Assembly: GCA_963711835.1 (NCBI GenBank)
Contig: CAVQFQ010000004.1
Coordinates: 256,001 to 320,000 of the forward strand
DNA length: 64,000 bases
Reading direction: 5' to 3'
DNA from: an uncultured delta proteobacterium
GTDB lineage: Bacteria; Desulfobacterota; RBG-13-43-22
Part shown: piece by piece, positions 15,838 to 48,933 of the stretch
Numbering within the stretch: position 1 is the first letter of the stretch
Layout: every line of letters starts with the position of its first letter
Program-made: the position numbers and the translations under genes
The notes under the pieces: model-generated
What the model was told of the DNA's origin: nothing
Database searches by the model: none
Seen by the model: only the letters and a program-made list of their open reading frames with translations

Positions 15838-16136
15838 GATTCTTACATCTTTTAGTTTGAGAATTTATCTCTATCTTTCCAAAATCAGGTGTAGGGGGGT
15901 CTTATTTTTTATGTTGTCCACCCCTAAGCCATGAGCTTCTTTGCCGGGCCAAAATCGGATAATGTTTTGGCAGCAGGCCTACACCCAAGCTGGAAATGGG
16001 CTTGGGTGTAGCCCTACTCTCAAATGATCTTAGCTATTCGGGCCGGATTGGTGGCTCTTAGTTACCCTTTGGACAACTTAAAAAATAAGATCCCCCTACA
16101 CCATTTCTTCAGTACGTTAGAAAAATTTCAAAGATC
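15838..16136. mobile_element. Shell-2 element containing the hairpin core (15888-16102)
   Basis: Arms GGTGTAGGGGGGTCTTATTTTTTATGTTGTCCA / TGGACAACTTAAAAAATAAGATCCCCCTACACC; flanks homologous to 25674-25785 in inverted orientation. Confidence 0.7.
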
Positions 16137-16173
16137 TTTGGTTAGATTATTATCCACCCCATCCCTCACCAAT

Positions 16174-17092
16174 TTACTTCCAGTCTTTCAACTCCGGATG
16201 AATAGCCCGGGCCAAGGCCTCCAGCCCGTCGACCAGGCGGGGCGAAGGCCGGTCCAGCACATCCGAATCCAGGAGATAAATCCGCCCCTTGGCGACCGCC
16301 GGGATCTGGCCCCATTGGTTCCAGCGTTCTTTTTTCTTTTCGGCCGGGGCGCCCCTTTCCATGGAGGTGATCAATATAACCTCGGGCTTGGATCGGAGGA
16401 CCTGCTCCAGGCTGTACTTGGGGTAGTTGATCGCTTCCCGGCCGCTGATATTGATTCCGGCCGCCAGGGTGATCAAATTATTATGAAAGGTATCCCGGCC
16501 CACCGTCATCAGGGGCTGTTCATTGATTTGTAAAAACACCTTGGGCCGGGATAACCGGGAACAGGCCCGGATAACCCGCTCGGCCCTTTGTTCAAGCAGG
16601 CCCACCATCCGGTCGGCCTCATTTTCGGTCCGGGTCATCCGGCCGATGGTCCGGATGGTTTCGAAGACCTCATTTAGATTTTTTGGATTGGTCACCAAAA
16701 CCCGGAGATCAAATCTTACCAGCCTCTCCACCGATTCCTTCTCATTGCCGTCGGCGGTGGCGATGATCAGGTCGGGCTTTAAGAGACAGGATCCTCTCGA
16801 TATTGAGATCCACATAACTGCCCACTTTGGGTTTGGCCAGGGCCCCGGCCGGGAAGTTGCAGTGCTGGGTCACCCCGACCACCTGATTTCCCAGGCCGAG
16901 ATTAAAAAGTATCTCGGTTATACTCGGCGCCAGAGAGATAATCCGCTGGTAGTGGCCGGGTGAAACGCGCCTGTTTAAGGCTTCCAGATCCGCAGTAGCC
17001 GCCAGCAGGTGACCCGGAAAGACCCAACCGGCGACCAGGACTAAGCCCAAAAACCAGTTGGTCTTTTTCCCCCTTCTTAGTGATCTTCTCAT
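16174..17092 (-). CDS. btuF: Cobalamin-binding periplasmic protein, one frameshift near 16779
   Basis: RIISLAPSITEILF, VGVTQHC, ERILSLKPDLII once the extra A is removed, RPSPRL. Confidence 0.85.
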
Positions 17093-17187
17093 AAGGCTTT
17101 TGCCTCTCGACCGCTCATTTGAGAAAGACGGCAGCCTAAAATTAATCTTCCTCTTCGCCTTTGCGGAGATTCCTAATTTTCTTTAGG

Positions 17188-19182
17188 CTAAAAAATATAA
17201 CTCAGCCCGGCCGAAACCGCGATCCCCGGGGCCGGGTAATTCTGATCCAGAAAGCTGGTACCCGGCTGGGCGTCATACTGCTGGTTCGTCAGGTTAAACA
17301 CGGAGACCGTGGCCTGCCAATGCTTGGCAAAGAGATGGCTCAGTTTCAGGTCCACCGTGTAATACGACCCCAAGCCTTTTTCCTTCTGGCTGACCTTGGG
17401 GAAATCGTCGTAGTCGCTGTAATAGAAAACCCGATCGCCGACGTAGCGGCCCGTCAGATGACCTAAGGTCCCCCAGGGCAGGCGGTAACTCAGGGTAAGC
17501 CGGCCTGGTGCCGGGGAACAGCGGCGGCCCGCCGTTCCACCAGTTGGGTCTGATTGGTCAGGGCCTCCTGGAGTTCTTTGTTTTTCTGCTTGGCCTCCAG
17601 ATAGGTGTAGCCCAGGGAGAAGGAGAGATTGGAGACCGGGTTCCACTGCAACCCCAGTTCCCCTCCCCAGGTATTTTGTTCGTTCACATTCCGGGGCTGC
17701 CAGGTGCCGGCGGCATCCGGTATCCATTCAATCTTATCCCTGACCTCCCAACGGAAGAGGCTGAGTCTCAGGCTGCTCTTTTTATTCATCAGGTCCTGAT
17801 CCAGGCTGATTTCATACGAGGTCCCCTTTTCCGGTTTCAGCTCGGTGTTGCCGGACCCCGGCCAAAACAAGTCGTTAAAAGTGGGCGCCCTGAAGGCCTG
17901 CCCGTAATGGGCTTTAAGGCGGGTCTCTTTAAAGGGGGTGTAAACCAGACCCAGATCCGGGCTGGTTTCGGAACCGTACCGGGAGGTGCCGTCGTAGCGC
18001 AGCCCGCCGACCAGGCGCAGGGCAGGCAAAAGCTGCCAGTGATCCTGGGCAAAAAACCCCCAGATGGTATTGTCCGGCTTCCACTGAGTAGCGGTGGTCA
18101 TGGAGGTGCTCAGATCCGTGGTTATCGTCTCGGCCTCCAGATCCTCTTTCCGGTAATCCGTGCCCAGGGTCAATTTGTTATGATAGGGAAGATTCCAGCT
18201 CAGGATCAGATTTCCGCCCCAGATATTGGTCTTATAGGTAGAGCGGTCTTCGAAGGCCGATAAAAAAGCATAGCGCTGGCGGAAAGAAAGTTCCCGCCAA
18301 TCCTGATAGATCTGGCTGCTAAGCTGAATCTTTTCGTTGATGTCCCAATTCAAATTGAAATTATTATTAAACAGAGTGCTGTCCTGATGATCGAAAAGGC
18401 TGCTGACCTCGCTGTTTCCGAAAGGGGTTGGCGTCCCGGCGGCCGGTTTAGGCCCGGGGACCCCCAAACCATCCTGATGAAAGGTGGTCAACAGACTGAG
18501 GGAGAGACGTTCCAGGGCCTGATAGGATAATTTCAAGGAGCCGTCCTTGCCCTCATAGGCGGAGTTATCCCTGAACCCGTCGGAGGACTTATGGGCCCCG
18601 CTGAAAAAGTACCCGAACCGATCGATAGTCTGGCCCTGTTCAACCTGATAGGTTTGGGTATTAAAGCTGCCGTAGGAAAGACCGGCCTTAAAGGAAGGCT
18701 GGTCCGGGGCCTTTTTGGTGATGATGTTGATCACTCCCCCCACGCGCATTGGCCCCATAGAGATGGGAGGAAGGCCCTTCAACCACCTCGATCCGCTCCA
18801 CCTGTTCAATGGGAACCTCGCTCAGGTCGGCGGAGCCGAAGGTGATGGAATTAATCGGGCGCCCGTCCACCATCACCAAAACCTGGGAGGCGCTCGAACC
18901 CCGGATGCCGACCGACTGGGCCGCACCCAGAGGACCATAGCTATTGATCTCAATCCCCAAGGAGCCTTTCAAGAGTTCTCCGACATTTCTGGCCGGAGAG
19001 GCCTCTATGTCCGCCGGACCAATCACCGTAACCGTGTTGGGGACATTCTTGATTTCTTCCCTGGTGCGGGTAGCCGTCACCATGACCTCATCCAATCTTG
19101 CCGGTGCAGAATCCGTCCAGCCCGGGTTAACGCCGGTCAAGACCAGGCCCAAACCCAAAAACAATATCCATACTCTTTTCAT
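17188..19182 (-). CDS. btuB: TonB-dependent cobalamin receptor, frameshifts near 18745 and 17498
   Basis: Signal peptide, VMVTATRT TonB box, plug (IRG...VLVMVDG...IERIEVV.GPSS.LYG), FRAPTFNDL, LKPE, C-terminal Phe; riboswitch upstream. Confidence 0.85.
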
Positions 19183-19214
19183 GTTGTTCTCCTTTCCCTC
19201 GAAGGAATAGTATT

Positions 19215-19364
19215 TTTTGCCGGCCCAGTCTCCTGACTGACAGCGCCCTACTCTCCTCGCCTTCCCATCCCGCGACTAACGGGTCAGTGGCCTGCTGGGA
19301 TTTCGTTCTGTCGACAGTTGCGGGGCAGTGCTGGTAAACCCAGACTTCCTGGTACCCGGCAAAA
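19215..19364 (-). ncRNA. Cobalamin riboswitch (compact variant) upstream of btuB
   Basis: Minus strand: CTGCCCCGCAACTGT, GCCACTG, GGGAAGG, AGTCAGGAGACT; closing stem TTTTGCCGG/CCGGCAAAA. Confidence 0.85.
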
Positions 19365-19422
19365 TTGAAAAACCTGGACAATATAGAATTCTTTTCTCTA
19401 CCTCTTCACGCCTCACCCGTCA

Positions 19423-20040
19423 CTAGTAGTAAGTGGCATTCATGAGCTTGACCACCGCGAACCGGCGGTGATATTCAATGATGTTCAGACAGGCGTAGGC
19501 CTGTTCCATGAAAAACATATTTCTAAACCGCAATCCCAGGGCCTGGGCCAGAATGATCCGGTTCACTCCGGCGTGGGCCGCCAGCAGAAACTCTTTCCCC
19601 TGCTCCTCTTCCAGGACCTTTTTAAGCCGGCGCAGGACCCGGCTCCTGAATTGGCTCCAATTTTCCCCCTCCGGAAAACGGAATTTTTTCAAGTCGGAAA
19701 AATTGACCGGTGGGGTTTCGGGATATTGCTTTTTAATCTCCGCCCAAGACTTGCCGTCCCAGACCCCCATATCCATTTCCCGAAATTCAGGATAAGGGAT
19801 GGGGGTCAGACCCCGGCCCCGGCAGAGGAGTTCGGCCGAAGTTATGGCCCGTTTCAGATCGCTGGCATAGGCCCGATCCAAAGGAAAGGACTTAAGGTGG
19901 CGGGCCAGGGCTTGCACCTGCTTTTTCCCCTGGTCACTCAACCCCCAATCGGTAAAACCCAGAAAGGTCTTCTGCCCCTGGCTGACCACTTCACCATGAC
20001 GAACCAGAAAAAGACGGGTGGGTTTTTCCGGTTCAGCCAT
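19423..20040 (-). CDS. cobC: Alpha-ribazole phosphatase (histidine phosphatase family)
   Basis: LVRHGE, ASDLKRA, EMDMGVWDG, AHAG; follows cobS. Confidence 0.8.
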   Translation of the reverse strand: MAEPEKPTRLFLVRHGEVVSQGQKTFLGFTDWGLSDQGKKQVQALARHLKSFPLDRAYASDLKRAITSAELLCRGRGLTPIPYPEFREMDMGVWDGKSWAEIKKQYPETPPVNFSDLKKFRFPEGENWSQFRSRVLRRLKKVLEEEQGKEFLLAAHAGVNRIILAQALGLRFRNMFFMEQAYACLNIIEYHRRFAVVKLMNATYY

Positions 20041-20785
20041 GGTGTGGGACCTTCAGGATATAAAGCATCCCCCAGACTTCGCTGGTTTCTATAACCGCGC
20101 CCATAATATCACCGGTAATGCCCTGCAGTTTTCTTGAAGCAAGCCAACCGCAAGCCAGGCTCCAGACAGTACAAAGAAATATTAATCCCAAGGCCCCCAC
20201 CCCGGCGATGACCAGGCCGAAACCCAGGGCCATCAACGAGGCCGCCAGGAATTCCTTTTTACCGCTGCCTTCAACCAAGGCCCGGCCCAAGCCCCCTTCC
20301 GGCCGGGCATAAGGAAAGAAAAAACCCAGGAGGACCGGGGTCCAGCGACTCACCAGAGGCAGCATGATAAGCCAGGGCATCAGGGCCGGGAAGGAAAGAA
20401 TCTCCTTTAACAAAACATATTTAAGTCCTAAAACCAAAATAAGGCCGACCAGGCCCATGGTCCCGATATGCACATCCTTCATAATACGCAGCCGTTCCTG
20501 GGGCGTTTTTCCGGCATAAAAACCATCCAGGGCATCGGCCAGGCCATCCAGATGCAAGGCCCCGGTCAAGATCACCCAAAAAGCCAATAACAATCCTACC
20601 GAGACCGAGAGGGGGAAAAGCGAATCGACCAAAAGAAAGAAACCCCAGAACAGCCCACCCAGAAGCAGTCCCACCAGAGGGTAATATCGGACCGAAGCCC
20701 CTACTTGGGTCTGGTCCGGCCGGGCAGCGGAACGGCCGGCCGGGATAATGGTTAAAAAACGTATGGCCAGCAGGAAGGCCTTCAT
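20033..20785 (-). CDS. cobS: Adenosylcobinamide-GDP ribazoletransferase
   Basis: FLTIIP, TGALHLDGLADALDG, MKD..IG.MG, GITGDIMGA. Confidence 0.95.
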   Translation of the reverse strand: MKAFLLAIRFLTIIPAGRSAARPDQTQVGASVRYYPLVGLLLGGLFWGFFLLVDSLFPLSVSVGLLLAFWVILTGALHLDGLADALDGFYAGKTPQERLRIMKDVHIGTMGLVGLILVLGLKYVLLKEILSFPALMPWLIMLPLVSRWTPVLLGFFFPYARPEGGLGRALVEGSGKKEFLAASLMALGFGLVIAGVGALGLIFLCTVWSLACGWLASRKLQGITGDIMGAVIETSEVWGMLYILKVPHHG

Positions 20786-21327
20786 TTTTTAAGGACCAGG
20801 GGGAGGCCGGCCACCATCAGGATCACCTGATCGGCGATCCGGGCTATGGCCTGGTGCAGGCGGCCGATTTCATCCCGATAAGTGCGGGCCAGGGGATATT
20901 CCGGGACAATACCCCAGCCGACTTCATTGGTTACGATTAAAAGCGGGGCCGGATACCCTTTAAGGAGTTCCAGAAAGGCCTGAATTTCCTTGGCCGGGTC
21001 GGCCGGCTGTTCCTGGCCGTGTCCGATCAGGTTATTCAGCCAGAGGGTCAGGCAATCAATAATCAGGATGGAAAATTGTCCGCGGATTTTTTGGAGTAAG
21101 GCGGCCAAGGCCAGAGGTTCTTCAAAGGTCCGGAAGGCCTGCCCTCTTTCCAGCCGATGACGACGGATTCTTTCAACCATCTCATCGTCCAGAGCCGGGG
21201 CGGTGGCCAGGTAAGCGCGAGGCGGAGGATGGTCCATGGCCCAGTTTACGGCCAAGCGGGTCTTGCCGCTTCTTACCGGGCCGGTGATCAGGGTCAGGCG
21301 GGCTTGGGGGTTGATTTGGGTATCCAA
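20782..21327 (-). CDS. cobU: Adenosylcobinamide kinase/guanylyltransferase
   Basis: ITGPVRSGKT, YLATA, EMVERIRRH, DCLTLWL, VTNEVGWGIVP, VAGLP. Confidence 0.95.
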   Translation of the reverse strand: MDTQINPQARLTLITGPVRSGKTRLAVNWAMDHPPPRAYLATAPALDDEMVERIRRHRLERGQAFRTFEEPLALAALLQKIRGQFSILIIDCLTLWLNNLIGHGQEQPADPAKEIQAFLELLKGYPAPLLIVTNEVGWGIVPEYPLARTYRDEIGRLHQAIARIADQVILMVAGLPLVLKK

Positions 21328-21431
21328 AAATAAAAATCCTTAAGCTCTTTTTCTGAACTTAAGGATGGCACCCAGTTTACTTGATCCATTAAGTTGAATC
21401 CCGGCGCTCCACGCACCCAGGGATCCTTTGG

Positions 21432-21613
21432 ATAAAGGCAGGTCTTCTGACTCCCCCGCCCTTCTAACGGCCTTCCCATCCCGCTTCAGCGAAACAGTGG
21501 CCCTATCAAGGTTAGAAAGGTTCCTGCTCAGTCGCGAGCAGGCGGGGTTACAGCGGCGGGACCGTGACGGCCTGAAACCGTCTTCCCTATTAAGCCCTTT
21601 ACGGCACCTTTAT
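21432..21613 (-). ncRNA. Cobalamin riboswitch upstream of cobU
   Basis: Minus strand: AGGTGCC...TAATAGGGAA...CCCGCCGCTGTAA...GCCACTG...GGGAAGGC...AGTCAGAAGACCTGCC. Confidence 0.92.
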
Positions 21614-21622
21614 AAGTCAGGA

Positions 21623-21650
21623 ATTATACAAAAATAAATAAAGATGTCAA
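21623..21650 (-). promoter_or_regulatory. Sigma70-type promoter of the cob/btu operon
   Basis: Minus strand TTGACA-N16-TATAAT just upstream of the riboswitch. Confidence 0.7.
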
Positions 21651-21748
21651 TGAAATTCTTTTGTTTTGAAGATTCTGACTTGACTTTTATAATCGAGGGT
21701 ATAAAGTTCCGTTGAACATTCCGGAATTGCTCCCTAAGTAGGACTATC

Positions 21749-22663
21749 ATGCTCTTATTTAAACGAAACTTGGCCGGCTTCATTTTTATATCCCTCCTTC
21801 TTCTTCCCTGGATCGGCTGGGCCGGCGGGGCCTATCCCTATCGATTTCCCGATCCGAAAATGAGATTCGATCCCAATGCCAACACCGTCATCGGCCTGCC
21901 CGGCGAGTATATCATCAAAGAAAAGGATACCCTTTTGGATGTGGCCCGGGATCACGGCCTGGGATTCAATGAACTGGAGATCTTGTACCCCGAATTGGAT
22001 CCCTGGGTCCCCCCCCGGGGAATGAAATTAATTATCCCCAGCCAGTGGGTCCTACCCCCAACCCAGAAGTACGGAATCGTCATCAATATCCCGGAAATGC
22101 GGCTTTATTATTTTTTTAAATCCATCCGGATGGTTCGGACGTATCCGATCGGCATCGGAGATCTGGGCTGGTTTAGCCCGGAGGGGACCTTCTGGGTTGC
22201 CGAAAAACGCCCCAAACCAACCTGGTACATCCCCGAATCCCTCCAGGAAAAATACGGGATGAAGCAAATGGCTCCGGGTCCGGATAACCCGCTGGGCGAT
22301 TATTGGCTGGGATTGTCGATCTCGGGCTACGGGGTCCACGGGACCAATTTCCCCTGGGCTGTAGGCCGGTTGGTTACCCACGGCTGTATCCGGCTTTATC
22401 CGGAGGACATCGCCAAACTATTTCCCATGGTAGCGGTTAAAACCCCGGTTGAAATGATCTATGAACCGGTAAAATTAGGCCTCCAGCACGGCCGGCTCTT
22501 CGTGGAGGTCCATCCGGATATCTATGGAAAGATACCCGATTTCCTGGAGTACGGATTGACCAAGATCCAGGCCTCGGGTTGGGCAGCCAGGGCGGACCGG
22601 GACCTTTTCTTAAAGGCCCTGGAGGAAAAAAAAGGCCTCCCGATAGACATAACCGAAGATTAG
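21749..22663 (+). CDS. L,D-transpeptidase (ErfK/YbiS-like)
   Basis: Signal peptide, LysM-like region, INIPEMRLYYF, PGPDNPLG, HGT...THGCIRL catalytic His/Cys. Confidence 0.92.
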   Translation: MLLFKRNLAGFIFISLLLLPWIGWAGGAYPYRFPDPKMRFDPNANTVIGLPGEYIIKEKDTLLDVARDHGLGFNELEILYPELDPWVPPRGMKLIIPSQWVLPPTQKYGIVINIPEMRLYYFFKSIRMVRTYPIGIGDLGWFSPEGTFWVAEKRPKPTWYIPESLQEKYGMKQMAPGPDNPLGDYWLGLSISGYGVHGTNFPWAVGRLVTHGCIRLYPEDIAKLFPMVAVKTPVEMIYEPVKLGLQHGRLFVEVHPDIYGKIPDFLEYGLTKIQASGWAARADRDLFLKALEEKKGLPIDITED

Positions 22664-22668
22664 TTTTT

Positions 22669-23062
22669 GGGATAATCCCAAAGTTACGTGATTCTCAAAC
22701 CGAAGGGGTAGCGCCTTAAAATATTAAATCACCCCAAAGGGCTTCAGGGGTCTTGATTTTAAGGATTGTCCGCCAAAACGCCGGCAGCCTGAACCCGGGC
22801 AGGAAGTTTATAATGGGGTTTAGAAGCAGGCCAACACCAAAGTCCCGCCTTCGGCGGGATGAATGCCCGGCTCCCAACCAACTTAGTCCGCCGCGGCGGA
22901 CGGGCCGGGTTCTTCGCATCCAAAACAATGCTCAGTCCCACTCCTGCGGAGTGGATCCCTGTTTGGGGCTCCGGATACCCTTGCGGACAACCTTGAAATC
23001 AAGACCCCTGAAGCCCTCGACGAATGGAGTGCTTAAAATTCACGTAACCTTGGGACAAACTC
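22669..23062. mobile_element. MITE family 1, copy 1 (complete)
   Basis: Imperfect ~25-bp TIRs GGGATAATCCCAAAGTTACGTGA / TCACGTAACCTTGGGACAAACTC; 8-bp direct repeat TAGTTTTT on both sides; inner hairpin core 22738-23017. Confidence 0.88.
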
Positions 23063-23180
23063 TAGTTTTTTTTCTTGACAAAGCGGGTTTTTTGTCTTTT
23101 ATTAATTAGGATTAGTTTTAGATACATGTTATAATAATTTATAGAGATTTTTTGTATTTTAGGAGAGGAGGTGAATAAGG

Positions 23181-23543
23181 ATGATCCGAAAGGGATTGGC
23201 TTTAAAAACCGTTTTACTTGTGTCGTTAGTTTTTGCGATGTTTGCTTTTACAACAGGCTGTGGCTGTTTCATAGAGGCTACCGCCGAACCTCCTAAGGCT
23301 GCACCGGCTCCTGCACCTGTGGTACAAGCAGCTCCCGCCCCTGTGGTGGATTGCAGCTCCTGCGAGTCTATCGTCAAACGAGCCGAGGCTGCCGCCAGCA
23401 TGGCTGAGGCCTCTGCCAAGAAGGCCGAATTAGCCGCTCAGAAGGCCGAAGCCGCCGCCGGCAGAGCCGAAAAAGCCGCTGAAAAGGCCGAGGCCGCCGC
23501 TAACAAAGCCGAGGCGATTTTTATGAAAAAAATGAAAAAGTAA
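23181..23543 (+). CDS. Alanine-zipper (Lpp/OprI-like) lipoprotein
   Basis: Lipobox-like FTTGC, Pro/Ala linker, AxKAExAA heptads, C-terminal KKMKK; GAGGAGG RBS. Confidence 0.75.
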   Translation: MIRKGLALKTVLLVSLVFAMFAFTTGCGCFIEATAEPPKAAPAPAPVVQAAPAPVVDCSSCESIVKRAEAAASMAEASAKKAELAAQKAEAAAGRAEKAAEKAEAAANKAEAIFMKKMKK

Positions 23544-23553
23544 CTGTTTTACG

Positions 23554-23600
23554 AAAACAAAAAGGCCGACAGGAAGAAACTCTGTCGGCCTTTTTGTTTT
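23554..23600. terminator. Rho-independent terminator (bidirectional)
   Basis: AAAACAAAAAGGCCGACAG-loop-CTGTCGGCCTTTTTGTTTT. Confidence 0.85.
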
Positions 23601-23711
23601 CCGGGCCGGGAAACAGCTTCCAGCCCCTGGTGGCCCCTTTATCCGGTTTGACCCTGAGAGCAGGGAATGATAGAATAAGAAGTTGAGGATTGATGCTGCT
23701 CATCCGGATAT

Positions 23712-25625: not shown

Positions 25626-25673
25626 CAGCTTGGCAAGCGGTTATCTTCAACAAACCGGGAAACCCTGAACAAG

Positions 25674-25785
25674 GATATTTCAATTTTTTTCCCAAGTCTT
25701 GAAGAAATGGTGTTGGGGGGTCCCCCCCAAACACCTGGTTTTGAAAAATTAGAGATAAATTCTCAGACTAAGAGATGAAAGGATC
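25674..25785. mobile_element. Shell-2 element lacking the core interior (empty or deleted form)
   Basis: Reverse complement aligns to both flanks of 15838-16136; centre reduced to the hairpin GGTGTTGGGGGGTCCCCCCCAAACACC. Confidence 0.7.
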
Positions 25786-25800
25786 TGAACAGGAAACTAT

Positions 25801-25829
25801 TTGACAACCTCCCTAATTTATTCTATGTT
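25801..25829 (+). promoter_or_regulatory. Sigma70-type promoter
   Basis: TTGACA-N17-TATGTT upstream of the OYE gene. Confidence 0.5.
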
Positions 25830-25959
25830 TAACTCTCTAACCCGTTGGCATCGTTCAAAAGTTTGGGCATTATATTTCTGCTACCCGATGGAAGGGGACC
25901 GGAGGTCTCGCTTCCGTGTGCGCATTCAAGCAACCGTTTCTTAAGAGGCTCTCAGAAAC

Positions 25960-28363: not shown

Positions 28364-28416
28364 AGAGAACTGGTTCGGCCTTTCCTGACCCTGAGAGCCT
28401 TAACCTTTACTGCCTT

Positions 28417-30511: not shown

Positions 30512-31926
30512 CCCGAAGCATCATGATCGTTGATGATGAAGAAAATATCCGAAAATATCTCAGCCATTCTTTGACTCAGGACGGTTTCGAGGTCTATACC
30601 GCCCAATACGGCAAGGAAGGCCTTAACCTCCTGCTTCAAAAACAGATCGACCTGATTCTTCTGGACTTAAATCTTCCCGACATTAACGGCCTGGAAGTCC
30701 TGAGAGAAATAAAAAAAATGGACGTCCAATCCATCGTCGTCATCATCACCGCCTATGGGGATATCAGCAGCGCAGTCAATGCCATCAAACTCGGGGCTTA
30801 TGACTATCTGACCAAGCCTTTTGATTACAACGACATCAAAATCGTCATCAACAAAGCGCTGCAACTCATCAGCCTGGAGAATCGTATTGAAGTTTTGGAA
30901 AGACAGATCGATCGTTATCAATACGGAGAACTCATTGCCCGGAGCAAGAAGATGCATGATATCTTTGAGCTGGCCGACCGTATCGCCCAGACTCAGAGCA
31001 CGGTGATTATTTACGGTGAAACCGGTACCGGGAAGGAATTAATCGCTGCGCTGATTCACCGAAAAAGCCCCCGGGCCAAACTCCCTTTTGTAACCATTGA
31101 TTGCACTTCCCTGCCGGAAAATCTTTTGGAAAGCGAACTTTTCGGCCACGAGAAAGGGGCCTTTACCGGGGCCGTGGCCCTTAAACGGGGGCTATTTCAG
31201 GTGGCTCATGAAGGAACCATTTTTTTAGACGAGATTGGAGATCTGGACATCAAGCTCCAGGCCAAGATCCTGCGCATCCTCGAAACCAAAACCTTTCGCA
31301 GAGTGGGCGGTGAAAAATTCCTGGAAACCGATGTGCGCATCATTGCCGCCACCAATCGGGATTTGAAGCATCTGGTCGAAGAAGAACGATTCCGGCAAGA
31401 TCTTTATTATCGCCTGAATGTAGTTCCCGTCACCTTGCCTCCCCTGCGGGAACGGAAGGAGGATATCTTTCCTTTAATTGAATATTTTATTGAAATATTT
31501 AATAAAAAAATAGGAAGAAAAATATTTCATATTTCCAACGAGGCAGTCAAAGCCATGATCGAATATCCATGGCCGGGAAATATCCGGGAGTTAAAAAACG
31601 TGGTGGAACATGTGATTATCACCAGTCAACAGGAAAGCATCGGATTGGAAAATCTGCCCTTGGAAATCCGCCGCGAATCGAAGGACCATTATTTTCAGGT
31701 GCCGGCCCTGCCCTCGAGTGAATCCATACCCTGGCCCGATTTCCGAACCGCCAAGAAGAAGATCATAGAGGCCTTTGAATATAATTATTTTAAAAAATTA
31801 CTTGAAAAGAACAACGGCAATATTTCTGAATGCGCCCGAAATCTAAAAATGCAGCGCAGCAATTTTCAGAGGTTGATCAGGAAATATAAACTGAGTCATC
31901 ACCCCAAAGGGGTTCAGGGGTCTTGA
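30502..31926 (+). CDS. Sigma54-dependent response regulator (NtrC family)
   Basis: Receiver, GETGTGKE, GAFTGA, FLDEIGD, WPGNIREL, C-terminal HTH; last ~9 codons and the stop come from the MITE. Confidence 0.95.
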   Translation: MEITRSIMIVDDEENIRKYLSHSLTQDGFEVYTAQYGKEGLNLLLQKQIDLILLDLNLPDINGLEVLREIKKMDVQSIVVIITAYGDISSAVNAIKLGAYDYLTKPFDYNDIKIVINKALQLISLENRIEVLERQIDRYQYGELIARSKKMHDIFELADRIAQTQSTVIIYGETGTGKELIAALIHRKSPRAKLPFVTIDCTSLPENLLESELFGHEKGAFTGAVALKRGLFQVAHEGTIFLDEIGDLDIKLQAKILRILETKTFRRVGGEKFLETDVRIIAATNRDLKHLVEEERFRQDLYYRLNVVPVTLPPLRERKEDIFPLIEYFIEIFNKKIGRKIFHISNEAVKAMIEYPWPGNIRELKNVVEHVIITSQQESIGLENLPLEIRRESKDHYFQVPALPSSESIPWPDFRTAKKKIIEAFEYNYFKKLLEKNNGNISECARNLKMQRSNFQRLIRKYKLSHHPKGVQGS

Positions 31927-32231
31927 TTTCAAGGATTGTCCGCCAAAACGCCGGCAGCCTGAACCCGGGCAGGAAGTTTATAATGGGGTTTAGAAACAGG
32001 CCAACACCAAAGTCCCGCCGAGGCGGGATGAATGCCCGGCTCCTAACCAACTTAGTCCGCCGCGGCGGACGGGCCGGGTTCTTCGCATCCAAAACAATGC
32101 TCAGTCCCACTCCTGCGGAGTGGATCCCAGTTTGGGGCTACGGATTGCCTTTCGGACAACCTTGAAATCAAGACCCCTGAACCCCTCTATGAATGGGTAG
32201 CTTAATAATCCCGTAACTTTGGGACAAACTC
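31898..32231. mobile_element. MITE family 1, copy 2 (left TIR missing)
   Basis: Nearly identical to 22728-23062; right TIR GTAACTTTGGGACAAACTC. Confidence 0.85.
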
Positions 32232-38933: not shown

Positions 38934-38978
38934 CTTCTATCCAGGCCAGGCTATCAACAGAAAGAAAGGAGAACCAAG

Positions 38979-39740: not shown

Positions 39741-39761
39741 TCCCGAAGGAAGGAGTGACCT

Positions 39762-40889: not shown

Positions 40890-40964
40890 GGCAGGGGGCC
40901 GGACGATTTTTTTTGGTCCGGCCAAAATGGTAGAGGACTTTAACCAGATGAAAGGGAGGGCTTT

Positions 40965-42257
40965 ATGAGTCAAAACACATTTTGGTCAACCAAGGTTACA
41001 CGGAGAGATTTTCTAAAAACCACCGCCGCCGCCTCGCTGGTCGTTGGCGGATCATCGCTGTTGCCCCGACTCGCCCGGGCCGAGGCCAGGGACCACATTT
41101 TGATCGGCCATCCCACCCCGGCCACCGGGCCTATTGCAGCCTTCGGGGAAACTTCCGCCTGGGCCGACAAAAAACTGGTGGAAGAAATCAACAAGGGGGG
41201 GGGCATCTTTATCAAGGAGCTGAACAAAAAATTGCCGATCCGGGTTAAACCCATGGATACGGAAAGCAATCCGACCAAAGCGGCCGAGGTGGCTTCCAAA
41301 CTGATCCTCCAGGACAAAGTCGATTTGATGATCGTCCTCCATACACCCGATACGGTCAATCCGGTGGGGGCCATCTGTGAGCGCTACGAAGTCCCCTGCA
41401 TTTCCTCCGTAGCGCCCATTGAACCCTGGTTAACCGGTGGGCCCTACAAGTGGACCTTTCATTATTTCTGGTCCTTAGGACAAATCATTGATGTCTTTAG
41501 CGGGATGTGGAACGAAAATGCCGCCAAGACCAATAAGGTGGTGGGAGGGCTCTGGCCCAACGACCCTGACGGAACCGTCTGGGCCCAGGAGTTTACCAAA
41601 AAACTGCAAGGCGCGGGGTACAAGGTCATTGATGTGGGGCGCTTTCCCTACGGGATGCAAGATTTCAGCGGTTTTATCAGCACCTGGAAAAAGGAAAAAG
41701 TGGAAATTTTGACCGGCGTGCCGATTCCCCCGGACTGGGCCACTGCCTGGCGGCAATGCCATCAGCAGGGTTTTATCCCTAAAATGGCCACCATCGGCAA
41801 GGCCTGTTTGTTCCCGGCAGCCGTTGAGGCCATTGGCGGCACCCTCCCCCGTGGCCTGACCACCGAAGTCTGGTGGACCCCCGGGCATCCTTTTAAATCC
41901 TCATTAACCGGGCGCACCTGCAAAGCTCTGGCGGATGAATGGACCAAAGAGACCAAGCGGCAGTGGACCCAACCCTTGGGATTTGACTATGCCGCCTTTG
42001 AAATCGCTGCCGACGTCCTGAAAAGAGCCGGATCCCTGGATAAAAACAAAATCCGTGAGGCCCTGGTAAATACCAAATTGGATACGGTCGTCGGTCCCAT
42101 CAAGTTTAATGAAAAGAATTTTTCCACGACACCGCTGGTCGGAGGACAATGGATCAAAGGGTCCAAGTGGCCTTGGGAAATGCAGGTGGTCTACAATAAG
42201 GAATACCCGAAGATCCCGGCCACTGGAAAACTGCTCTTCCCAATCACCAAAACATAA
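40965..42257 (+). CDS. Tat-exported ABC substrate-binding protein (Liv/aromatic-acid type)
   Basis: TRRDFLK Tat motif, TGPIAAFG, DTESNP; precedes livGFHM. Confidence 0.88.
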   Translation: MSQNTFWSTKVTRRDFLKTTAAASLVVGGSSLLPRLARAEARDHILIGHPTPATGPIAAFGETSAWADKKLVEEINKGGGIFIKELNKKLPIRVKPMDTESNPTKAAEVASKLILQDKVDLMIVLHTPDTVNPVGAICERYEVPCISSVAPIEPWLTGGPYKWTFHYFWSLGQIIDVFSGMWNENAAKTNKVVGGLWPNDPDGTVWAQEFTKKLQGAGYKVIDVGRFPYGMQDFSGFISTWKKEKVEILTGVPIPPDWATAWRQCHQQGFIPKMATIGKACLFPAAVEAIGGTLPRGLTTEVWWTPGHPFKSSLTGRTCKALADEWTKETKRQWTQPLGFDYAAFEIAADVLKRAGSLDKNKIREALVNTKLDTVVGPIKFNEKNFSTTPLVGGQWIKGSKWPWEMQVVYNKEYPKIPATGKLLFPITKT

Positions 42258-42359
42258 TCCGGAGAAGGCCGGTATACCCTGAACCCCAAGGCCTTCTGAA
42301 TCATCCGGGAGGGGCCGAAACCCCTCCCGGTTTAATAGCCCCAGGAATATCCAAAAAAA

Positions 42360-42549
42360 GGGATAGTCCCAAAGTTACGTGATTCTCAAACCGAAGGGGG
42401 TAGCGCCTTAAAATATAAAATCGCCCCAAAGGGCTTCAGGGGTCTTGATTTCAAGGATTGTCCGCCAAAACGCCGGCAGCCTGAACCCGGGCAGGAAATT
42501 TATAATATGAATGGTTAGCTTAATAATCACTTAACTTTGGGACAAACTC
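42360..42549. mobile_element. MITE family 1, copy 3 (internally deleted)
   Basis: Both TIRs present; flanks CAAAAAAA/CAACAAAA (7/8 match). Confidence 0.85.
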
Positions 42550-42598
42550 CAACAAAAAGGTTAGCTGGAACTGATACGGGATCCCCATTCGTCGGCCG

Positions 42599-43345
42599 AT
42601 GACTGAAAACTCTCAAATCCTCATTGTTGAGGAACTTTTTAAATCCTTCGGCAAACTGATGCCGATCTGTGACCTCAGCTTTGAAGTGCAACCCCGGGAG
42701 ATCCTCGGCATAATCGGCCCGAATGGAGCCGGCAAGACCACCCTCTTTAATTTGATCTCCGGCCGATTTAAACCGGATAAGGGTCGGATCATATTTAACG
42801 GGCAGGATATTACTTCCGCCTCAGGATACAAGCGTTGTCGGATAGGCATCGCCCGCACTTTCCAGGTACCCCGGCCTTTTGTCAATATGACCGTTTGGGA
42901 AAATCTTTTAGTCGGAGCTTTCTACGGATCCGGGCTAAAAAAGCAGCAACAGCGGGAACGGTGTGAAGCGGTTCTCGGGCAAACGGGCCTGATTTCAAAA
43001 CGCCATATCCTCACCGACACCCTGCCTCTGCTCGACCGAAAAAGATTGGAATTGGCCAAGGCCCTGGCTACCCAGCCGAAGGTATTATTAGTCGATGAGG
43101 TCGCCGGGGGGTTGACCGAAGCGGAAGTGGAAGAGGTGCTGCGGATCATCCACCAGATCCGGGAGGCCGGGGTGGCGGTCCTGTGGGTCGAACACATCAT
43201 GATGGCCATGCAGAAGGGCCCCGACCGGCTCCTGGTCATCAATTTTGGGGAAAAGTTATTTTGCGGACCCCCCCGGGAAGCCTTTGAGAATAAAGATGTC
43301 CAGGAAATCTATTTAGGCACCGAGGACCATGGAACCCCTGCTTGA
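42599..43345 (+). CDS. livG: ABC ATPase (LivG-like)
   Basis: GPNGAGKTT, IARTFQ, VDE, VEH. Confidence 0.88.
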   Translation: MTENSQILIVEELFKSFGKLMPICDLSFEVQPREILGIIGPNGAGKTTLFNLISGRFKPDKGRIIFNGQDITSASGYKRCRIGIARTFQVPRPFVNMTVWENLLVGAFYGSGLKKQQQRERCEAVLGQTGLISKRHILTDTLPLLDRKRLELAKALATQPKVLLVDEVAGGLTEAEVEEVLRIIHQIREAGVAVLWVEHIMMAMQKGPDRLLVINFGEKLFCGPPREAFENKDVQEIYLGTEDHGTPA

Positions 43346-44045
43346 AATCAAGGACCTGGATGTCTATTACGGTGAATTCAAAGTCCTGACCTCCATTTCC
43401 CTGCGTGTGGAAGAAGGGCAGATCGTTTCGATCCTGGGCGCCAATAACGCCGGAAAGTCCACATTGCTCAAGACCATTGCCGGCCTGTTAAAGAATAAAT
43501 CCGGCAGCATCCATTTTATGGGGCGACCGATCCATCGGCAGGAACCTTATGTCATTTTAGATCTTGGTTTGGCCCTGGTTCCTGAAGGGCGCAAGATATT
43601 TGCCAGCCTGACCGTGGAGGAGAACCTCCTCATGGGCTCCTTCACCCCCAGGGCCAGAAAAAAGAAGAACGAAGGGCTGGAGAACATTTACACCCTTTTC
43701 CCCAGATTGCAGGAACGAAGGCGGCAACTGGGAACCAACTTGAGCGGGGGAGAACAACAGATGCTGGCTATCGGACGGGCGCTGATGTCCCGGCCGCGTC
43801 TGGTAATTTTTGACGAGATTTCCCTGGGGCTGAGTCCGATCGTCGTCCAGGTCCTCTACCAGGCGGTGCGGCAGATCAACCAGGAAGGCATGACGGTGGT
43901 GCTGGTCGAGCAGGACGTAAAAAGAAGCCTGAAAGTGGCCCAATACAGCACTATCCTCCAGGAAGGGAAAATCACCCTTCAGGGTCATCCCTGGGATTTC
44001 TCGGAGGGGGATGTTAAAAGGGCCTATTTTGGATTAAAAACCTAA
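43329..44045 (+). CDS. livF: ABC ATPase (LivF-like)
   Basis: GANNAGKST, VPEGR, LSGGEQQMLAIGRAL. Confidence 0.88.
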   Translation: MEPLLEIKDLDVYYGEFKVLTSISLRVEEGQIVSILGANNAGKSTLLKTIAGLLKNKSGSIHFMGRPIHRQEPYVILDLGLALVPEGRKIFASLTVEENLLMGSFTPRARKKKNEGLENIYTLFPRLQERRRQLGTNLSGGEQQMLAIGRALMSRPRLVIFDEISLGLSPIVVQVLYQAVRQINQEGMTVVLVEQDVKRSLKVAQYSTILQEGKITLQGHPWDFSEGDVKRAYFGLKT

Positions 44046-44086
44046 TCATCAAACCCAAGTGCTCAGCCCATGGACCTTTTTTCCTT

Positions 44087-44950
44087 ATGATGGCCTATCT
44101 TGAACCTATCATCAACGGATTTCTCCTCGGCGGCCTCTACGCCGTCATAGGCATCGGCCTGTCCTTGATCTTCGGCATTATGCGTCAGGTCAATCTGGCC
44201 CACGGAGAACTGATGATTCTTTCCAGTTATTTCAGTCTGCTGGCCCTCACCCGGTTAGCCGGTTCCCCGCTCTGGACGCTCCTTTTGGTCCTGCCGGCCA
44301 TGTTTTTTTTCGGCTATTTCCTGCAAAGGATCCTGTTTAACCGGGTACTTCAAAAGGGCATGGAACCTTTCCTGATGATCTCTTTCGGGCTTTCCATTAT
44401 CCTTCAAAATGCCTTGTTGCTGATCTTCAGTCCCGACGCCCGGACCCTGGCCACCGATCTGGTTTTTAAAAGCATCAACGTCTATGAACACTTTTTCATT
44501 CCCGTGATTTACCTGGTCGATTTTGGATTGGCTTTTTTAATTTTGATCGGACTCCATTTGTTTCTGAAGCACACCTATCTGGGCTGGGCCATTCGGTCCT
44601 CGGCGGACGACCTTACCGCGGCTAAGTTGATGGGCGTAAACCCCCAAAAGATTTACGCCCTGGCCATGGGGATTGCAGCCGTCACCGCCGCAACCTCGGG
44701 CGTCCTGGTGGGGATGACCTTCACTTTTTATCCCCACTCCGGCACCCAGTACCTGATTATCGCCTTCGCCGTGGTCATAATCGGCGGCTTGGGCAGCTTG
44801 CCGGGGACCTTTCTGGGGGGAATCATCCTGGGGATCTCTCAGTTGTTGGGCGGCCGCCTCTTGGGTCCCGGACTTCAGCTCTTGAGCGGCTATTTTATTT
44901 TGCTGATCGTGCTGACCATTCGACCCCAGGGAATCCTGGGCAAACGGTAG
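44087..44950 (+). CDS. livH: ABC permease (LivH-like)
   Basis: GLSLIFG...VNLAHGE, GGLGSLPG, RPQGILG. Confidence 0.88.
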   Translation: MMAYLEPIINGFLLGGLYAVIGIGLSLIFGIMRQVNLAHGELMILSSYFSLLALTRLAGSPLWTLLLVLPAMFFFGYFLQRILFNRVLQKGMEPFLMISFGLSIILQNALLLIFSPDARTLATDLVFKSINVYEHFFIPVIYLVDFGLAFLILIGLHLFLKHTYLGWAIRSSADDLTAAKLMGVNPQKIYALAMGIAAVTAATSGVLVGMTFTFYPHSGTQYLIIAFAVVIIGGLGSLPGTFLGGIILGISQLLGGRLLGPGLQLLSGYFILLIVLTIRPQGILGKR

Positions 44951-44956
44951 GTCTCC

Positions 44957-45895
44957 ATGGGCTCCTTCAATCTTCGACCGATAGCGGCCATTCTGATCTT
45001 GGGCCTGCTTGTTTCCCTGCCCTTCTGGACCTCCCGATATGTGGTGAATGTCTTGTTACTGATCTGCGTCCACGCGGCTTTGGCCTCCATGTGGAATCTT
45101 CTGGCCGGTTATTCGGGGATGATTTCCCTGGGGCAACAAATGTTTATCGGGTTGGGGGGTTATACCCTGGCCGTCTTATCCGTTTATTACCAGGTGCCTA
45201 TTTTTCTGAGCGTCTTTATCGGCGGCCTAACGTCTCTCCTCCTGGCCCTGACCATTTCCCGGCCGATTTTTCGCATGAAAGGGGTTTATTTTGCCATCGG
45301 CACCTGGGTGATTGCCGAGGCCCTCGGCATTTGCTTCAGCAATTGGGGTTACGTCCGCTATGGGATGGGGATGTTTATTCAACCGGCCTATAAGCTCTCC
45401 ATGTCCGTTATCTATTATGCCGCACTGATCCTGGGAGCCGGCTCCGTAGCCCTGATCCATTGGCTGCTCCGCTCAAAATTGGGGCTGGGCCTCATGGCTA
45501 TCCGTGACGATGATATCGCCTCCGAGGCCTTGGGGGTGAATATCTTTCGCTGTAAACTGACCTGCTTCCTGATCAGTGCCTTCTTTACCGGCATGACCGC
45601 CGGGGTGCTCTACCTGAATACCATCTTCATCCAGCCCTTTGAAGCCTTTGGGATCGGCTGGACGGTCAAGCTGCTCTTCATGGTCATCATCGGCGGCATC
45701 GGGACCATCGAAGGCCCAATTTTAGGGGCCATCCTGTTCGTCCTGCTGCAGCAGTATCTTTCCGAATACGTGGGTTATAATATGATCATTCTCGGAACCA
45801 TCACCATCGCCGTCATCCTGGTCGCCCCTAAAGGCATTATGGGCACCCTTCAGGAGAAACTCGGCTGGACTTTATTCAGAGTCCGCCGCCTATAA
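44957..45895 (+). CDS. livM: ABC permease (LivM-like)
   Basis: WNLLAGYSG.ISLGQ, GVYFAIGT, GGIGTIEGP. Confidence 0.88.
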   Translation: MGSFNLRPIAAILILGLLVSLPFWTSRYVVNVLLLICVHAALASMWNLLAGYSGMISLGQQMFIGLGGYTLAVLSVYYQVPIFLSVFIGGLTSLLLALTISRPIFRMKGVYFAIGTWVIAEALGICFSNWGYVRYGMGMFIQPAYKLSMSVIYYAALILGAGSVALIHWLLRSKLGLGLMAIRDDDIASEALGVNIFRCKLTCFLISAFFTGMTAGVLYLNTIFIQPFEAFGIGWTVKLLFMVIIGGIGTIEGPILGAILFVLLQQYLSEYVGYNMIILGTITIAVILVAPKGIMGTLQEKLGWTLFRVRRL

Positions 45896-45949
45896 AAATT
45901 TTCAAGCTCTCTGAAATAATGAGTTAAACCTTTAGAGGAGGCAAAAAAC

Positions 45950-47647
45950 ATGTTGGACAGGAGCATTTCTTCCTTACGGACCTTAAGGCCCGAAACGGAT
46001 TTTGACAAATCCATTTTCTGGTTTCGAGATGATCTTCATCAACCTTATGCCATTTCACCCATGGGTATGACCACCGTCCAGGTTCATCATGCCTGGGGCT
46101 ATCATGTAGCCGCCGCCCAAACCCAACTGCCTCCCTCCAAAGGAGGCCACGTCAAGATATACAAGGGCAAGGTCTATCTGGGATTTGCCCTGATAGAGGA
46201 CCCTGAGGAAATCGCCTCGCGTGCCCCCGCTTTCGAGAAACTGATCGATCACTGCATCGATCACTGGGATGCCTATTACCAGCGCCACATCAAAGAGGTG
46301 ATTTCCAACCTGGATACCCTTAATGGGGTGGACACGGACAAATTAATCCTCCCCCATCTCCTGGAACATCTGAAAAGAGCCGAAAAATTGAATCGTCGGA
46401 ATTGGGAAATTCATTTTATCCTGATGTACCCGGCTGATGCCGTCTATTTTGCCTTTGAAGATTTCTGCAAACAGCATCATCTGGAAGAAAAAGATTTTGT
46501 CATCATGCTGCGCGGCTTTGAAAGTATCGCCACCCAGACCGACGAGGAATTGTGGCAGTTAGCCCTATTCGCCGAAGAGTGCGGTCTGAAGGATCTGCTG
46601 ATCACCACCCCGGCCGATGATATCCTGGAAAAGTTGAACAAAAGCCTCGAGGCCAAACCCTGGCTGGAAAAATTCCAGCGCTTCCTTTCCATTTTCGGTA
46701 ATCGGGTGGTGGCCGCTCATCTGGATATCACCACCCCCACCTGGAAAGAAGACCCCGCTCCGGTCCTGGACACCATCAAAGGCTATTATCCAAGGATGGA
46801 AACAGGCTGGGATTTTTATCAATCCAAGAAGGGAATCCATGAGCAGCGGGAAAAGACCATTCAACAATTTGAGGGCCGGCTTACTACCGAGGAGGAAAAG
46901 AAGCAGTTTAAGCGGTTACTCAAGGCGGCCCAGGGGGTTTATGCCTTTCAGGAGGACCATGGTTTTTACATTGACCAGGGCTCAACGGCGGCCCTCCATA
47001 ACGCCGTCATGGCCTGTGGAAAACGCCTCTACCGACGAAAACTGATTGAAGGCATTGAGGACGTGTGTTTCCTGACCTTTCATGATTTGCTCGAGGTCAT
47101 GGAAGCCCTGGTTTATAATGATGAAATCGCCAGATACCATTACAGCGCCCTGATACCCAACCTGGTGCGGGAAAGAAAGGAAGACGCCCGCATGGCTGCC
47201 GAGTCTGATGCCCCTTTGACCTTCGGCAATGTCCCTGAAAAGATGACCGACCCGATTGGGATCAAGGTTTTCGGGATCATTGATGATATCCTTCATCCTA
47301 AAGGAGAACGGGAAATTGAGGAGCGGCTGGAGGGATTTCCGGGGGCCCCGGGAACTGCCGAAGGCCTGGCCCGGGTGGTCCTGGACTACAAGGATTTCCA
47401 AACGGTGAAAGCCGGGGAGATCCTGGTCTGCCCTTATACCGGCACGGCCTGGACTCCCCTGTTTATTAAAATCGCCGGTGTGGTGACCGATACCGGGGGC
47501 ATGCTGACCCATGCCGCCATCGCCGCCCGGGAATACAACATCCCGGCCGTTGTCGGGACCTGGAATGCCACCCGGTCCATCCGGGACGGGGATCTGATCA
47601 AAATCGACGGCAACATCGGAATCGTCGAGGTCATCAAAAGGGCTTAG
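45950..47647 (+). CDS. PEP-utilising phospho-His domain protein with a large N-terminal substrate domain (phenylphosphate synthase subunit A-like)
   Basis: C-terminal GEILVC..T...WTPLF...VTDTGGMLTHAAIAAREY.IPAVVG; no ATP-grasp domain. Confidence 0.85.
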   Translation: MLDRSISSLRTLRPETDFDKSIFWFRDDLHQPYAISPMGMTTVQVHHAWGYHVAAAQTQLPPSKGGHVKIYKGKVYLGFALIEDPEEIASRAPAFEKLIDHCIDHWDAYYQRHIKEVISNLDTLNGVDTDKLILPHLLEHLKRAEKLNRRNWEIHFILMYPADAVYFAFEDFCKQHHLEEKDFVIMLRGFESIATQTDEELWQLALFAEECGLKDLLITTPADDILEKLNKSLEAKPWLEKFQRFLSIFGNRVVAAHLDITTPTWKEDPAPVLDTIKGYYPRMETGWDFYQSKKGIHEQREKTIQQFEGRLTTEEEKKQFKRLLKAAQGVYAFQEDHGFYIDQGSTAALHNAVMACGKRLYRRKLIEGIEDVCFLTFHDLLEVMEALVYNDEIARYHYSALIPNLVRERKEDARMAAESDAPLTFGNVPEKMTDPIGIKVFGIIDDILHPKGEREIEERLEGFPGAPGTAEGLARVVLDYKDFQTVKAGEILVCPYTGTAWTPLFIKIAGVVTDTGGMLTHAAIAAREYNIPAVVGTWNATRSIRDGDLIKIDGNIGIVEVIKRA

Positions 47648-47686
47648 GCCTCATAAGGGCGCCTTTCAATTCCTATCCGGGCTTAT

Positions 47687-47977
47687 TAAGGGTCTCAAGA
47701 TAATAATAACCAACAGGGACCGGGGGGTCTTCTTTTCTGGGGTTGTCCAAAGGGTAACTCATCGCCCTATCCCGGCCCGAACGGCTAAAGGGGTTAGATG
47801 CAGGGCATTCACTCAAGTCCGTTTCGGGCATTAGTGGTGGCCTGTCTCTGAATCGATCCAATTTGGCCCGGCAACGAAGCTTTAGGCTTGAAGGTGGACA
47901 ACCCAGAAAAGAAGACCCCCCGGTCCCATTTAATGCAAACTCCTCAGTTTCATGTCAAGACTATTATGAGACCCTTA
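47687..47977. mobile_element. Shell-3 element with the hairpin core in reverse orientation (47716-47927)
   Basis: Outer 11-bp IR TAAGGGTCTCA/TGAGACCCTTA; inner ~33-bp IR; interior homologous to 15888-16102. Confidence 0.75.
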
Positions 47978-48009
47978 GTTGACAACACCTGAAAGGATAG
48001 AACCACATT

Positions 48010-48535
48010 ATGTCCTCCTATGAATTTGAAGGTAAAAGGCCTCGGGTTGATACCGGGGCCTTCGTCCACCCCGAGGCGGTGCTGATCGGTGAGGTCATCA
48101 TCGAGGCCGGATGTTATATTGGAGCCGGGGCCGTCCTGCGGGGGGATTTTGGCTCCATTCACATCGGATCCGGTTCGAATATCCAGGAAAATTGCGTCCT
48201 CCATACCTTTCCCGGCAAAGGCCTCTTGCTCCATGGCAACACCCATATCGGCCACGGTTGTATTCTCCATGGCTGTGAGATCGAATCCCAGGTTTTAATC
48301 GGCATGGGGGCCATCATTGCGGATGGTGTCGTCATCCACGACTATTGTATCATTGGGGCGGGAAGCTTCGTCCCTTTTAACCTGGAAATTCCCAGCGGAA
48401 GTCTGGTAGTCGGTTCCCCGGCTAAGGTCCTCAAGACCATCACCCCCGAGCAGAGAGAACAGATTGTCAGAGGACTGGGCCTTTACCAAGGAATTAACAA
48501 CCCGTTATTTAAAATCCTTTAACAAAATCAGGTGA
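48010..48535 (+). CDS. Gamma-carbonic anhydrase family (PaaY/CaiE-like) protein; probable 1-nt frameshift near 48490
   Basis: Hexapeptide repeats, LRGDFG.I, NIQENCVLH, IGH..ILHGC; the shifted frame gives ELTTRYLKSFNKIR*. Confidence 0.85.
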
Positions 48536-48598
48536 TCCGCAGGAAGTCTAACAAATGACCTTTTCGTCATTATAAGGCTCCGTCTCTCCTTTCTTTTT

Positions 48599-48933
48599 GG
48601 GGTAGTCCCAAGGTTACGTGATTCTCAAACCGAAGGGGTAGTCTCTTAAAATCTTAAATCACCCCAAAGGGCTTCAGGGGTTTTGATTTCAAGGATTGTC
48701 CGCCAAAACGTCGGTAGCCTCAACCCGGGCAGGAAGTTTATAAGTGGGTTTAGAAACAGGCCAACACCAAAGCAATTTATCGCCTTGGTGAATGCCCGGC
48801 TTCCAAACCAGCTTAGAAACTTCGGGCCGGGTTGGGGCTATGGATTCGCTTTGGCGGACAACCTTGAAATCAAGACCCCTGAAGCCCTCGACGAATGGAT
48901 GGCTTAAAAATCACGTAACCTTGGGACAAACTC
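48599..48933. mobile_element. MITE family 1, copy 4 (complete)
   Basis: Both TIRs; 8-bp direct repeat TTCTTTTT on both sides; core 48668-48888. Confidence 0.88.

Follow-up and report, generated by a model that had tools for sequence, protein, structure and literature searches.

What kind of element is a sequence of some 218 bp that recurs inside transposon-like shells unrelated to one another? The question is raised by a 64,000-nucleotide stretch of DNA from an uncultured delta proteobacterium (assembly GCA_963711835.1, contig CAVQFQ010000004.1, positions 256,001 to 320,000), which was analysed as a whole and is referred to below as the window. An earlier note, made from the letters of the window, had placed six copies of a conserved core there and had read it as a functional or independently mobile structured RNA, possibly an orphan cassette of the bridge RNA kind known from IS110-family elements. 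[quoted passage not shown]

All six core copies are located where the earlier note had placed them, and our model R2 retrieved six out of six within the window. The arms are complementary as claimed (94-100% across the five window copies measured; Table 1), and the ordered blocks that had been listed correspond to invariant or near-invariant columns in an alignment of 38 diverse copies. The core is non-coding and comprises an arm of 32-33 bp at each end and an interior of about 150 bp, the 280-nucleotide copies being 218-nucleotide cores enlarged by small hairpin insertions. Searching the 3.9-Mb genome with a profile built from 26 representative copies yielded a total of 149 core loci, 117 of them full-length (146 and 117, respectively, with a first profile of the same genome). 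Arms have a median length of 32 bp, 47 out of 115 being without mismatch when one 1-nt bulge is permitted; in 64 copies from the source and other genomes the length is mostly 31-36, and in a second genus (g2), sampled by the terminal inverted repeat (TIR) of the shell, 11 of 19 measurable arms have a length of 31. Across genera the outer arm sequence shares 30% identity, yet arm length stays near constant in all shells.

Each half of the core contains three boxes, arranged in mirror order and spaced 28-32 bp apart on both halves. Comparing five copies from genera g2 and g3 with eighteen others gave a box identity of 65-96%, versus 30-39% in the spacers. Among 30 g2 loci chosen by the shell end alone, 19 had all six boxes under a loose match, the remainder being truncated or empty. 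The inner arm box was considered as a DnaA box, an identity that is unsupported: 60 of 93 arms differ by two mismatches, and 17 by one, from the consensus quoted in the available text of PMC6006769. Stop-free reading frames run across the core in 28 loci and were taken as chance products. The core in turn receives a third layer of repeats: small REP-like (repetitive extragenic palindromic) hairpins, in some cases as nested arrays 100-200 bp long, have inserted into it at a small number of sites that recur between copies (window 22844-22960 and 32013-32130; L024, L052, L304, L378 and other loci).

The shells around the core are unrelated, as the earlier note had stated, but the three that it counted were too few: the window holds an end of a fourth, four main shells occur in the genome, and at least eight unrelated types were distinguished by eye when relatives are included. 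Shells S1, S3 and S4 are MITEs. They are non-coding, have TIRs and cluster near 332, 294 and 307-320 bp in element size, respectively, with an 8-bp target duplication in 31 of 44 S1 and 26 of 32 S4 elements and a 4-bp duplication in 13 of 18 S3 elements. Judged by its ends, which equal those of a full ISH6 element, shell S4 is a non-autonomous derivative of the ISH6 type; the full element, 1.6 kb long, was found in another genome (L110 in G096), where it encodes a transposase matching NF041731 at 483.5 bits (cut-off 240) between S4-type ends with an 8-bp duplication, the core being absent. No parent element was located for S1, S2 or S3, the search for S2 covering 151 genomes, and shell-end pairs lying 0.5-6 kb apart in the source genome enclose only host genes or an insertion at L004. 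The latter locus (approximately 300-2480 of L004; contig C10 of genome G000) encodes a helix-turn-helix protein and a DDE transposase to which no NCBIfam family corresponds; considered as an autonomous parent, it was rejected as a separate element of two open reading frames (ORFs), which has short inverted ends of its own, is flanked by a 7-bp duplication and interrupts a small hairpin within a core. No TIR was found in shell S2; by eye, several S2 shells (window 15838-16145, 25686-25785 and others) show at one end the same short word of 3-4 bases as at the other.

MITEs with S3- or S4-type ends also occur in other families, where they contain other interiors. One such element, of 306 bp (L080, 1212-1517, in G215), has ISH6-type ends around a different long fold-back interior. 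At L585 (1501-1728, in G038) and at three sites of G000 (C15:49326, C17:370395 and C21:303430), REP-like hairpins replace the core between ends of S3 or S5/S7 type.

The distribution of the core is narrow. Besides the source genome, the family is represented by 20 genomes, the whole class in the collection; a sequence model detected the core in 19 of these, some of which have decayed halves only, and in none of the 146 genomes sampled from other families. Scanning the genome collection for a pattern returned 59 loci, 51 of them real, in six assemblies of deltaproteobacterial type (e.g., RBG_13_43_22). From metagenomes, 58 of the 80 loci retrieved were real; these results were inspected in part, and the loci inspected were short elements or cores split by hairpins. 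Searches of viral contigs gave no match, none of the 80 loci retrieved out of at least 120 pattern matches was real, 24 viral loci with an arm pattern had neither core nor partner arm, and 16 with an S4 end had no core. Plasmids gave no match. Sequencing runs contained at most 15% of the search words and are therefore uninformative on habitat or strain. Two genomes (L569 in G019 and L580 in G012) have an S6 shell with a decayed half-core at the same site, upstream of a transporter gene cluster; this is an old insertion that was inherited vertically.

How the copies differ from one another indicates the level at which they change. Among the 111 copies that could be classified, 29 have a flipped core (six more are unclassified, and several labels are wrong). 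Orientation is scattered on the core trees, which are poorly resolved: the 10 flipped S1 copies require 9 changes. In genus g2, too, each orientation is found repeatedly. Changes found in a single copy were matched in both arms in 28 cases and one-sided in 69 (107 copies), compared with 2 matched and 76 one-sided for the shell TIRs used as a control (84 copies). In nine flipped S1 copies, a 1-nt arm marker went with the core six times and with the shell twice and was in both arms once, a split that is expected if crossover is possible at any point of the arm. Shells from which the core is missing have variable breakpoints. The core also changed shells repeatedly: a tree of 38 interiors requires 12 changes of shell label (minimum 5) with clustering remaining (none of 200 shuffles gave so low a number). 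Counting well-supported branches alone, three or more changes are required for each of S1, S3, S4 and S5, although the S3 label is doubtful in two cases. Direct cases are an S1-type interior within S4 shells and a locus (L034) made of an S3 left half and an S5 right half. The core behaves as DNA.

A cassette of joined ends could have come to this state as follows. Transposases acting in trans would copy shell and core together, as suggested by the TIRs and duplications of S1, S3 and S4 and by the ends that S4 has in common with ISH6. While the DNA is single-stranded at the replication fork, the arms may pair with each other, and template switching or recombination anywhere along the arm would produce flips, correction and loss, and cores would move between shells by recombination among copies through their shared arm and box sequence. 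A protein may read the phased boxes on one face of the helix, which their conservation and their conserved spacing of 28-32 bp are consistent with. The best lead for this reader protein would be a HUH (Y1) transposase of the TIRYT type, because one class of TIRYT ends shares the two-box spacing of the arms.

TIRYT repeats and TIRtrons, including dimers formed by the TIR repeats of TIRYT genes, are treated in the available text of Di Nocera et al., 2013 (PMC3733652), and subclass 2.1 of TnpA-Y1 in that of Quentin et al., 2018 (PMC6006769). We found 12 Y1 transposase matches in the genome and Y1 matches in 21 of 21 family genomes, the long ones mostly bounded by inverted repeats that open with a G run; besides matches to Y1_Tnp, the family of REP-associated tyrosine transposases gave L420 a score of 92.4 bits, above the cut-off of 80, and L419 one of 67.8, below it. 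A survey of 76 Y1 genes in 92 loci was drawn from 210 family matches. Three end classes occur among the TIRYT-type genes (L419-L430 and L459-L538), and in many of these genes the upstream end contains a hexamer resembling a -35 element, some 30 nt ahead of the start codon. In 22 of 57 TIRYT ends, GGGTC is followed 12 nt on by a TTGAC-like box; 60 of 94 core arms have the second box at 12-13 nt, where it beats 1000 of 1000 shuffles, and 192 of the 208 genome matches to this two-box pattern fall within cores. Compared with the GGGGWSAS motif given in the available text of PMC3733652, the arms share the first six bases and differ at the seventh, which is A in the sampled TIRYT ends and T or C in the arms. 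On these sequence grounds, the likeness between arms and TIRYT ends is best described as a resemblance, not membership. A half-core adjoins a TIRYT end in one case (L503). Twenty half-core loci were decay products with neither a partner arm nor a transposase.

Several observations weigh against the joined-ends reading. The TIRYT step is weak, as the cognate gene was not found: core arms bound none of the 76 Y1 genes surveyed, the arms score -7.4 bits on a profile of TIRYT ends (27.1 for the TIRYT ends themselves) with no fit in the middle 12 nt, and no gene-bearing parent with arm-like ends was present among the 20 half-core loci or the pattern loci from genomes (59), metagenomes (80) and viral contigs (104). 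For the ISH6 transposase, there was no match in the source assembly, which is 89% complete, and none above the cut-off in the 21 family genomes. The core is dispensable, since there are shells without it, some of which have increased in number. Part of the box conservation may be due to ascertainment, the core model having served to find the five distant g2/g3 copies, and the contrast between arms and shell TIRs in matched changes could stem solely from arm length and proximity. Shell labels were assigned by matching motifs loosely, and a number of them are doubtful or wrong.

In a more active version, which we regard as rather unlikely, the core would be a helper or hyperparasite of MITEs that does not depend on a particular transposase: its arms and helically phased boxes would recruit a host or HUH protein that draws the two ends of any surrounding element to each other, core-bearing MITEs would outcompete empty forms, and the cassette would outlive the turnover of transposases by swapping shells.

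Unlikely, too, is the opposite proposal that the core is an old palindrome without function that MITEs acquired on one or a few occasions and that replication slippage and gene conversion among many copies keep alike. Flips that show no fixed crossover point agree with it, as do the core-less shells with their variable breakpoints, some of which have spread. The same can be said of the surroundings, since the context of flanking genes equals the background (73 tandem, 25 divergent and 15 convergent, versus 1178, 368 and 317 gaps, respectively) and no conserved gene or gene family emerged from 412 ORFs beside cores at 161 loci. Against a passive origin, the boxes are far better conserved across genera than the spacers and keep their spacing on both halves, arm length is near constant in all shells despite the divergence of the outer arm, and conversion within genomes does not explain conservation between genera that is restricted to boxes. 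With boxes and spacing kept across genera, the core is more than a decaying palindrome.

We give no greater weight to a core that is itself mobile, cut and joined on single-stranded DNA by a TIRYT/HUH-type transposase and inserted into MITEs, which would account for its repeated arrival in independent shells. The Y1 genes of all family genomes with their G-run inverted repeats, the two-box spacing concentrated in cores, the half-core next to a TIRYT end and the dimers of TIR repeats mentioned in the available part of PMC3733652 all point in this direction. Set against them are the Y1 genes themselves, none bounded by core arms, the mismatches of the arms to TIRYT ends at the seventh base and in the middle, the lack of a clean pair of empty and filled sites (core-less shells resemble deletions) and the lack of a demonstrated solo core outside a shell.

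It is distinctly improbable that the core acts as some other structured RNA, made as part of the transcripts of adjacent genes, with a long closing stem that binds a protein or alters the stability of the mRNA, as MITEs in general can do according to the available text of PMC3733652. Single copies do fold very stably: three window copies gave z-scores of -9.7, -9.3 and -16.3, with 0 of 200 shuffles equally stable. The consensus fold of 38 copies, however, consists of the outer arm only, and the 25 of 38 predicted pairs that have two-sided changes all lie within it. The internal stems that the earlier note had described pair within single copies, but consensus fold and covariation give no support for them across copies; the inner rod is 79% paired, a value equalled or exceeded by 497 of 500 shuffles, and shows no covariation. 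One-sided arm changes are wobble-compatible alike on both strands (46 versus 49), the strand of the core has no bias relative to flanking genes (36 versus 37), and the core flips freely. Two metatranscriptome assemblies contain related sequence (both runs belong to one study and come from other strains, as contigs only); these RNA contigs cover shell and core alike, resemble the DNA runs and cannot reveal ends, strand or level. A search of Rfam returned two cobalamin riboswitches as the only matches in the window and, for eight core loci, a best match of 28.5 bits versus a gathering score of 105. The two riboswitches score above the gathering score and lie at 19206-19391 and 21420-21626 (minus strand). 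Of the structured RNA that had been proposed, the distinct unit stands, as does its spread within unrelated shells by other elements; a conserved RNA fold is not supported.

Bridge or seek RNAs are described, in the available text of PMC11208160, as encoded in the non-coding end of IS110 elements, transcribed as discrete RNAs and bound by the recombinase, with conserved inner stem-loops and with internal loops that pair with target and donor DNA. In favour of such an RNA are a size near the 177 nt of the IS621 RNA (PMC11208160, same text), conserved blocks alternating with variable stretches, two IS110 loci in the genome, an S2 shell without TIR or assigned family and the existence of orphan IS110 small-RNA modules, ssr9/MITEPpu9, which the available text of PMC12288879 places between the ends of their own element. 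An orphan cassette of this kind is very improbable, and as a bridge RNA lead the core should be dropped: its loops match their own shell, arm or junction no better than those of other copies (15 tests with a smallest p of 0.081, from the longest matches of 5 variable segments in 38 elements, the targets being proxies), inner stems are not conserved, neither of the two IS110 loci (L001 and L002) matches the core, no IS110 gene is among its recurrent neighbours (top 25 clusters of the 161 loci), and an RNA made from a promoter would not be expected to have long perfect arms, to flip freely or to be without preference for a strand.

Table 1. Shells and cores in the window (positions 1 to 64,000).
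Feature	Coordinates	Strand	Remarks
AT-rich shell S2 with full core	15838..16145	+	ends approximate; no terminal inverted repeat found
Core with S2-type arms	15888..16102	+	arms 32 bp, 2 mismatches; 15888-15920/16070-16102, 94% complementary
S1 MITE with core	22669..23062	+	TIR about 25 bp; 8-bp target duplication
Core with 33-bp arms	22738..23017	+	280 bp long through small hairpins inserted at apex and right spacer; arms 22738-22764/22991-23017, 96% complementary
Core-less S2 shell	25686..25785	-	short G/C hairpin only at core position; near-copies elsewhere in genome
Left end of fourth shell, S4, with ISH6-type TIR	25847..25909	+	terminates in arm start; absent from earlier note
S1 element, left shell mostly lost	31898..32231	+	core 31908-32186, same inserted hairpins as copy at 22738; arms 31908-31934/32160-32186, 100% complementary
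S1 MITE, core internally deleted	42360..42549	+	left part 42430-42506 alone remains
S3 MITE with core	47690..47974	-	short TIR; TTAA-type 4-bp flanks
Core with perfect 32-bp arms	47716..47927	-	arm pairing and model match; arms 47716-47741/47902-47927, 100% complementary
S1 MITE with core	48599..48933	+	8-bp target duplication
Core with 33-bp arms	48668..48888	+	arm pairing and model match; arms 48668-48694/48862-48888, 96% complementary

The window contains other repeats. Two copies of a 77-nt AT-rich repeat, unrelated to the core, lie 507 bp apart (54481-54557 and 54988-55064). An inverted pair of 35 nt, built of short tandem units, is 91% complementary over a distance of 535 nt (2754-2788 and 3324-3358), and 5945-7936 contains three paralogous stretches in tandem, at intervals of about 750 bp.

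The layers of the element can each be compared with a known kind. REPINs, the REP doublets of RAYT transposases, consist of an inverted pair with a spacer, have arms that evolve in concert and occur in many intergenic copies, and the core resembles them in all of these respects; its arms, however, are not short REP hairpins, most lack a GTAG-type tag (64 arms inspected by eye), and the REP-like hairpins found here are passengers in the core. Site-specific invertases act on a segment between inverted repeats that is found in both orientations, as the core is, whereas no invertase lies beside the core, its copies number more than 100 and the 6/2/1 split of the marker in nine flips gives no sign of a fixed crossover point. 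Seven tyrosine-recombinase matches lie elsewhere in the genome, and no recombinase recurs as a neighbour of cores.

With bacterial MITEs and ISH6 derivatives (NF041731) the shells share their short gene-less form, TIRs, target duplications, intergenic location and high copy number, and S4 the ends of ISH6 itself; in contrast to these, at least eight unrelated shells here hold one inner cassette that has long arms of its own, flips and changes shells, and the full ISH6 element is without it. TIRtrons and TIRYT repeats, as presented in the available texts of PMC3733652 and PMC6006769, agree with the core in their G-run inverted repeats, in forming dimers and, for one end class, in two-box spacing, and TIRYT-like genes are abundant here; core arms differ in bounding no gene, in departing from GGGGWSAS and in having the box 9-10 nt inside the arm tip, and the core in its interior of 150 bp, where another two pairs of boxes lie, and in sitting inside DDE-type MITEs. 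The RNAs of IS110/IS1111 elements (IS621, PMC11208160) and ssr9/MITEPpu9 (PMC12288879), again as far as the available texts go, are alike in length, alternating blocks and stand-alone copies, whereas the core lacks a link to a recombinase gene, a match between loops and targets, conserved inner stems and a strand preference. The literature searched, whose coverage leaves out most subscription papers, contained no description of one cassette common to unrelated bacterial MITEs. Each layer is of a known kind, and what is unusual is one conserved inner cassette across at least eight unrelated MITE shells and four genera.

Should a protein read the boxes, the core would be a passenger with a longer life than the elements that carry it; it could then serve as a portable enhancer of transposition, or else as a natural substrate of TIRYT enzymes. 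Its arms also illustrate that perfect covariation can arise at the level of DNA and mimic a structured RNA.

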